Shown: in pieces, positions 50,882 through 51,117 of the stretch
Layout of the letters: each line of letters opens with the position of its first letter
How positions within the stretch are numbered: position 1 is the first letter of the stretch
Assembly: GCA_964016885.1 (NCBI GenBank)
Contig: OZ024748.1
Coordinates: 14,198,001-14,262,000 of the forward strand
From: Eledone cirrhosa
Lineage: Eukaryota
Direction of reading: 5' to 3'
Length of the DNA: 64,000 bases
Program-made: the position numbers and the translations under genes
The notes under the pieces: model-generated
What the model saw: the letters and a program-made list of their open reading frames with translations, nothing else
The model's database searches: none
What the model was told of the DNA's origin: nothing

Positions 50882-50882
<1 letters not shown>

Positions 50883-51117
50883 ACGAAGGAAATGTGGTAA
50901 GGAACCAGGTGGACCATAACGCACCAAAGTACTCAATACTTAGGGTAGTAGAGTGGGTAATAGGAACCAGTAGGACCCCGACGGCTGAGCTCAAGCCGTT
51001 TCGACGGCTAATTCTGGACTAAATGAAAAATTTTGGACTATATAAAAATGTTCATTTAGTCCAGAATTAGCCGTCGAAACGGCTTGAGCTCAGCCGTCGG
51101 GGTCCTACTCGTTCCTA
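50882..51117. mobile_element. Fold-back element family H4
   Basis: Arms 50960-51034 and 51044-51117; tail 50882-50960; (TA)n flanks. Confidence 0.87.

Follow-up and report, generated by a model that had tools for sequence, protein, structure and literature searches.

The DNA studied here is a 64,000-nt stretch of the genome of Eledone cirrhosa (assembly GCA_964016885.1, contig OZ024748.1, positions 14,198,001-14,262,000 of the forward strand), hereafter the window, which contains an assembly gap of 200 N at 46,178-46,377. At 50,883-51,117 it carries a fold-back insertion of a family designated H4, placed between two host tracts of (TA)n (left, 50,846-50,882; right, 51,118-51,131) and constituted by two inverted arms. 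The long arm (50,883-51,029; element sense on the minus strand) has the tail tip as its outer end, joined to the tract with TAT microhomology and beginning (TA)n|ACGAAGG; its 78-nt tail (50,883-50,959, minus strand) is found in the long arm only and includes a small bulged hairpin (50,929-50,954, minus strand) predicted from the folds of loci L024 and L346, a few bases 3' of the short-arm site. The short arm (51,051-51,117, plus strand) ends TTCCTA|(TA)n, 78 nt inside the long-arm tip. Between them lies the arm-arm junction (51,030-51,050), with 21 nt outside the strict alignments, and the two arms differ at one subfamily-type site. Both overrun by about 7-9 nt the inner stop usual for either arm, namely reference position 138 of the family, here the A at 51,058 (plus strand) of an initiator-like TTAGTC, which, judging from its motifs, is likely the transcription start. 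Further, the short arm holds the 3' half of a type I hammerhead motif (51,076-51,103, plus strand: GAAA, stem III, GUC and a stem I strand), with the predicted GUC cut site after 51,098; from the three-way fold of L024, the 5' half is located upstream of the presumed start.

The insertion is followed by the short arm of a second family, H1 (51,132-51,460, plus strand), which overruns its own start site, with a TATAAATA box at 51,258 and an initiator-like TCACT 31 nt below. About 20 nt beside the right TA tract (51,119-51,149) recur inverted twice within the left tract (50,796-50,845), and these nucleotides start like the H1 long tip. The 51,132-51,460 segment may represent an insertion of H1 whose long arm measures 11 nt, the end of that arm having snapped back over (TA)n before the H4 insertion; comparable snap-backs were found at L055, L077 and L063, and at 63,807-63,860 of the window. 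A common tandem-forming short repeat starting TAATTGTTTCTAC occupies 51,585-52,160 as well as L259 and L281, and was found at the identical spot of the H1 tail in two independent loci.

Other fold-back insertions were recognized by inverted-repeat and self-BLAST scans of the window with microsatellites masked, since unmasked scans were dominated by them. An earlier note on this DNA had listed H4 short-arm ends at 24,497, 51,117, 57,903, 59,635 and 63,863, and we found an end at each of these positions, those at 51,117, 57,903 and 59,635 being clear; the long arm, described there as running about 80 nt further, does so by 78 nt. The insertion at 24,497-24,651 combines a short arm of about 12 nt, weak (about 9/14 bases match) and below the aligner's length limit, with a long arm stopping exactly at reference 138, and is preceded by a solo long arm of a diverged subfamily (24,350-24,464, plus strand). 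At 57,903-58,102 the short arm reaches 135 and the long arm 133. At 59,536-59,635 the long arm stops at 81 and the short arm covers 79-96; as these arms barely overlap, the insertion is not a fold-back of its long arm. The last copy (63,863-64,000) displays TAAGAA in place of TAGGAA at its short-arm end, while the long arm extends beyond the window by 31 nt. The H1 ends at 5,481, 51,460 and 57,548 and those of a third family, H7, at 35,222 and 36,684 were likewise as previously described. They belong to H1 long-plus-short insertions at 5,481-5,899 (with a complete minimal hammerhead motif, core at 5,693) and 57,127-57,548 (centred at the initiator-like site), the H1 short arm above, an H7-related long-plus-short insertion at 35,097-35,222, and an H7 insertion at 35,945-36,684, in which an inverted long arm is joined to a longer short-end arm of a Neptune-like element. 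At least three more families with the head-to-head long-plus-short form in (TA)n were observed in the window (29,068-29,385, 53,893-54,066, 44,281-44,720, 6,761-6,903, 24,266-24,341 and 56,839-57,105), and a hammerhead-like block is common to the 29 kb family and H1. The window also contains fragments resembling what we take to be RT ends of non-LTR elements of RTE/CR1 type (29,756-30,151, 30,737-31,075 and 63,000-63,570).

Parent elements of the hairpins

On sequence grounds, we assign H4 and H1 as ends of Hydra-clade Penelope-like elements (PLEs), H4 with intact RT and endonuclease ORFs, and H7 as the end of a Neptune-like PLE; the PLE origin given in the earlier note is sustained by the continuity of H4, H1 and H7 with PLE ORFs. 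For H4, two four-unit head-to-tail arrays with periods of 3,531 and 3,542 bp contain eight open frames, each 784-786 codons long (about 716 aa counted from Met). Their YRDD and ..YIG blocks correspond to a single ORF with an RT plus, at the C-terminus, a GIY-YIG endonuclease, which also displays RLRWRTFF (RWK-like), HSDKTGN (DKT), a CxCx5C linker (CNCPDRSIC), and CxxC and CxH as CNLCSEE...NKKDELVTACKH. The RT blocks, assigned by eye, agree with the Hydra alignment in the accessible part of the PMC8557442 supplement. A Pfam search with the ORF gave no match, and a PDB sequence search nothing relevant. Over 128 aa, the RT fragment of H1 has 49% identity with H4, and the H7 arms lead to a C-terminal GIY-YIG domain after a CX4CxxC linker (CTNRKCIIC ... 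YIGET; L299, L302 and L306). The arrays (C1:437198000-437214500 and C1:91473000-91487500) are formed by near-identical, intact units, and are likely young source loci.

The Hydra clade groups C-terminal EN+ PLEs with a CxCx5C linker, CxxC/CxH, RWK and DKT, as described in the available sections of Craig et al. (2021, PMC8557442). H4 shares with it the single ORF, the RWK-like and DKT motifs, CxCx5C, CxxC/CxH, the (TA)n target and the hammerhead motif, and differs in its unit (3.5 kb, versus usually <3 kb), in its tail (78 nt for H4 and about 95 nt for H1, versus the published 30-40 bp), and in that H4/H1 occur as tens of thousands of stub insertions, unlike the description of the clade. Neither family corresponds to Hydra-1_Obim, the protein of which differs, and four short H4/H1 motifs were absent from the part of the PMC8557442 supplement that was searched. 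H4 constitutes a new family within a clade that is known, as is the shape of its insertions.

The pLTR and partial-tandem structure of H4 was recognized in 415 tail-to-TATCT matches, 24 of the 30 inspected being pLTR-ORF junctions, together with the inverted copy and one-sided tail. The H4 hammerhead is predicted as a three-way fold with a U3/A8 core, the cut site that it encloses being 19 nt inward of the short end, and H1 carries the motif CUGAUGA...GAAA. Among H4 subfamilies, A and C have UUGAGAA (U3 with A8) as the core (L024/L346), and B has a mismatched CUGAGAA; a palindrome is present in the loop of stem III. No hammerhead appeared among the 150 matches listed of 197 in Rfam, where the top match was a sub-threshold miRNA model. 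Furthermore, a second Neptune-like GIY-YIG PLE family directly adjoins H4/H7 insertions in L005, L029, L293 and L304, PLEs being nested in one another's TA tracts.

Outer ends and pairing of the arms

H4 relatives comprised 30 loci taken from 40 scored candidates, all close matches to the long arm. The H4 core 25-mer has 51,587 exact matches genome-wide, and a census of arms, anchored on the first 100 listed, spanned contig C1 from its start to 13.84 Mb (the first ~14 Mb), a single region in which exact motif matches were required. Two sharp end peaks had been anticipated in the earlier note, and 121 of 131 core-covering arms ended at two sharp points 78 nt apart: 55 at reference 1-7 and 66 at 75-80 (61 of them exactly at 78), with 10 elsewhere. 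Genome-wide, exact junctions amounted to 29,659 for long tip|TATA and 28,167 for short tip|ATATA, a ratio of about 1:1, with 0 for the reversed controls. For H7, whose ends were read by eye (L293-L315), the short end was found in 17/25 best arms, and two long-arm ends about 15 nt apart in 3/25 and 5/25.

Element sequence continues beyond both H4 tips in tandem or ORF-bearing copies, with the long arm running on into a Hydra-type RT/EN element in L028, L029 and L346. Because the sequence proceeds past the long tip in ORF-bearing copies, both ends are internal sites. Both have TAT in common with (TA)n and are followed by a small bulged hairpin in predicted folds, the one after the long-arm site being seen in ORF-bearing copies; the hairpins may have a part in priming. 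Flank duplications, mostly simple repeats, gave no usable target-site duplication signal (direct in 8 and inverted in 5 of 61 insertions, versus 12 and 4 in 300 mismatched pairs).

Pairing classes were counted in the same census. From the first 93 of the 100 listed long tips, 61 are next to a short arm, 2 (both from one insertion) next to a long arm and 7 next to another element piece, while 23 are without an adjacent partner. The short tips (73, of which 30 were unselected and 43 met inside other loci) have a long partner in 64 cases, a short partner in none and no neighbour in 9. H4 head-to-head insertions are therefore long/short in 61 cases, long/long in 1 and short/short in 0. For H1 (40 of 170 short tips, one tip variant), a partner was present for 22/40 short arms and was never a short arm; three candidates for H1 short/short pairs turned out as interrupted long arms.

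The hairpins are short, of high copy number, with inverted repeats and TA hosts, all features of MITEs of a TA-targeting DNA transposon. The asymmetric ends, variable centres and solo arms, and above all the direct continuity with RT/endonuclease (PLE) ORFs, refute such an origin, to which we give a negligible probability, and the earlier note's rejection of MITEs thus stands, on that continuity and on 61 long/short pairs against one long/long and no short/short.

The pairing also bears on whether each DNA end could have been primed on its own RNA, within a dimer, and chosen its site. Free choice would give half long/long or short/short insertions, versus the 1/62 seen (p about 1e-17), and is excluded by that count. 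Palindromic hammerhead loops could pair two RNAs, a few insertions have different subfamily-type bases between arms, and full overlap of the arms would be obtained on two RNAs without strand displacement. Conversely, coupling of the inner ends away from the usual stop is contrary to such an origin: when the long arm runs past 143, the short arm does so in 9/10 pairs, a set chosen on long arms, versus a base rate of 4/30. For two RNAs to be viable, the dimer would have to impose asymmetry and a single locus would have to supply both RNAs, and we regard this as unlikely.

The arms of one insertion also resemble each other, with at most 1.5 mismatches within versus 3.8 between insertions (52 insertions), 1.5 being an upper bound since an added first base inflates the within-insertion value. 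The nearly constant sharing of one source by both arms, together with the coupled inner ends, points to one RNA molecule, although common variants could also come from one active master at a time or from later conversion. A few insertions, among them the one at 50,883-51,117, have arms discordant at subfamily-type sites, so that a switch or a second RNA must at times be involved.

Pairing, identical arms and coupled inner ends would all be accounted for in one step by a fold-back, whereby a cDNA primed at the tail tip snaps back (or the RNA self-primes), is copied back, and is resolved by the endonuclease at an internal TA-like site. Self-priming (PMC3846280) and endonuclease resolution of the tail (PMC8557442) are published as hypotheses in the sections available to us, some centres are perfect palindromes (L009), and the short site has ATT, given as the preferred cut motif of PAc in the accessible part of PMC11167929. 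Near-equal inner ends with overlapping arms, present in 43/61 pairs, would be yielded by a fold-back too. Against it, folding back a long cDNA never yields a deeper short arm, and among the 61 H4 pairs the short arm is deeper in 30, equal in 10 and shallower in 21; it is deeper by >10 nt in 18/61, versus 3/61 for the long arm (p=0.0015). Further, in 10/61 pairs the long arm goes no deeper than 83 and the short arm holds sequence absent from it, which rules out a simple fold-back for those 10, as for the window copy at 59,536; short arms paired with a long arm that stops by 120 still reach 131-143 in 13/17. Solo short arms, which were found as well, likewise speak against it, and a later deletion would need to start from the centre and affect no side but the long one (18 versus 3). 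We consider a fold-back origin improbable.

The 61 H4 junctions displayed 1-7 nt of overlap in 23 cases, blunt joints in 14 and extra bases in 24, a mix as would be expected of end-joining. With respect to the priming reading of the earlier note, two defined sites and separately primed arms joined back to back were upheld, RNA priming and the joining step still being inference; the tail tip as the RNA end was abandoned, as the tip is an internal site.

Centres and the likely start site

The earlier note described the inversion centres as different in every copy and expected them to be dispersed. They do differ base by base; instead of being dispersed, they pile up at reference 131-142. Inner ends were obtained by strict realignment, as BLAST ends at 142 were often 138 stretched across a mismatch. 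Of the 93 long arms, 38 stop by 130, 47 at 131-142, 0 at 143-210 and 8 beyond, so that 47 of the 55 reaching 131 stop by 142; for 20/30 unselected short arms the stop falls at 131-143. The A of TTAGTC occupies position 138 and that of TCATTT position 142, motifs that we take to be initiator-like from the general consensus, and the TATA-like TATTTAAATA starts 30 nt upstream of 138, this box being degenerate in two H4 subfamilies. Arms joined directly to TATA numbered 133 at 138 versus 12 at 135. In H1, where TATAAATA lies 31 nt upstream of TCA(+1)CT, 19 of the 40 short arms stop ≤16 nt before that motif, 5 exactly on it, with the remainder at +5 (1), earlier (10) or far beyond (10). The stacking of inner ends at an initiator-like A with TATA at -30 points to run-off at the transcript start, a start placed from motif spacing.

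Alternatively, the centre cluster may reflect stalling of the RT at an RNA structure (hammerhead loop II) or a later hairpin-deletion hot spot. The H4 stop is within loop II, in which folding predicts a weak AU hairpin, the ends spread across 12 nt, and an extra G of the kind that a cap would leave, seen at 138 (45/100 listed of 133 arms, above background), is matched at the control position 135 (7/12); in H1 it was found in 1 locus pair of 9 matches. Nevertheless, the H1 stop lies ~60 nt upstream of its hammerhead with the same TATA/initiator spacing, arms pass the stronger stem III, and the edge is one-sided (0/93 in 143-210), solo arms stopping there too. Stalling or deletion thus has a low probability, and run-off is preferred.

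Among early-stopping H4 long arms, 7/37 end at 96-98, the predicted hammerhead cut (p=7e-5), which would fit either cleaved RNA or a stall at stem III. A start inside the hammerhead would explain why most H4 arms pass through the cut site. Concerning ORF-bearing copies, 5/24 junctions begin at 127-141, three of these with an inverted short arm, and the remaining ones extend further upstream, for which a tandem, circular or jumped template would be required. The identical hairpin caps ORF-bearing copies L317, L318 and L321, and a 16-kb array is bounded by an inverted long end and a short-type end. The canonical inverted-pLTR structure is thus this hairpin extended by an element body.

Insertion model and known systems

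Taken together, we propose, with a probability of roughly 0.7, that the hairpins are short insertions of EN+ PLEs made by twin priming on one RNA, run-off at its start and end-joining. The element protein would cut both strands of a (TA)n tract, and the two DNA ends would each be primed at a fixed site of their own, both sites being close to the 5' end of one and the same element RNA, possibly by a two-subunit enzyme with one subunit per priming site. The long copy would displace the short one, and both would run off the transcript start and be joined head to head by end-joining; arms extending further back might reflect tandem copies that were read through, a circular template or a template jump.

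A broader and rather doubtful reading holds that PLEs integrate by obligate twin priming and that full-length copies arise by a strong-stop jump. A two-subunit RT-endonuclease on two hairpins close to the 5' end of one RNA would make two strong-stop cDNAs. As the H4 start splits the hammerhead, only the 3' copy would be cut, leaving an RNA with a 41-nt terminal repeat; the strong-stop cDNA might then jump to the 3' repeat, giving full-length and tandem copies in a retrovirus-like manner, with hairpins as failed jumps. In retroviruses, minus-strand strong-stop synthesis is primed near the RNA 5' end and gives a short run-off cDNA. Here, priming would be by target DNA, and twice; the likeness stops at the run-off cDNA, strand transfer being conjectural. 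In L1 twin priming, a single RNA is the template on which each of the target ends primes, and joining of the resulting cDNAs gives an inversion, with a variable second site and arms without overlap, whereas here both sites are fixed, the arms usually overlap fully and twin priming would be the rule.

PLEs are the closest mobile relatives of telomerase. Their insertions are known for inverted truncated copies, a tail at one end and a (TA)n bias, and self-priming or endonuclease resolution has been proposed for the inverted copies and tail (PMC8557442, PMC3846280 and PMC2377424, the proposals being in the first two; sections available). The H4 and H1 insertions share with this canonical form the head-to-head arms, one-end tail, pLTR motif with TATA and initiator-like TCACT, and partial tandems; they differ from the proposals in that non-overlapping arms argue for two primings and in a centre at the likely start site. 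The closest experimental system is PAc (Poseidon of Anolis; Frangieh et al., 2024, PMC11167929), for which the accessible text reports that both strands are cut and extended in vitro, from two internal RT starts on either side of the tail, which lie downstream of an uncut hammerhead and at the pLTR-ORF junction, the start site not differing between strands. Two internal starts, extension of both strands and an AT-rich target are shared with H4, and a dimer is predicted for PAc; PAc belongs to another clade, and its starts are reported there as non-homologous to the target, versus the 3-nt TAT microhomology of H4; the accessible text does not deal with site pairing, inverted products or run-off at a natural start.

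Publications already describe inverted pLTRs, one-sided tails and a pair of internal RT starts, and the formation of the former two is named as an open question in the parts of PMC8557442 and PMC11167929 available. No statement of obligate long/short pairing or start-site run-off was found in the freely accessible literature, searched at the level of listings, and the accessible portion of a 2026 retrozyme preprint held no relevant passage. The value of the H4 hairpins is as a mechanistic readout: tens of thousands of stubs record a long arm paired with a short one at each event, priming that is independent for the two, and a halt where the RNA likely starts, favouring twin priming over the published self-priming idea and leading to exact predictions for the existing in vitro PLE system. 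Furthermore, hairpin centres would mark PLE promoters, and PLE hairpins are prone to mis-annotation as MITEs or microRNA precursors. As a minor observation, both arms of the hairpin at L320 end at reference 97, the predicted hammerhead cut.
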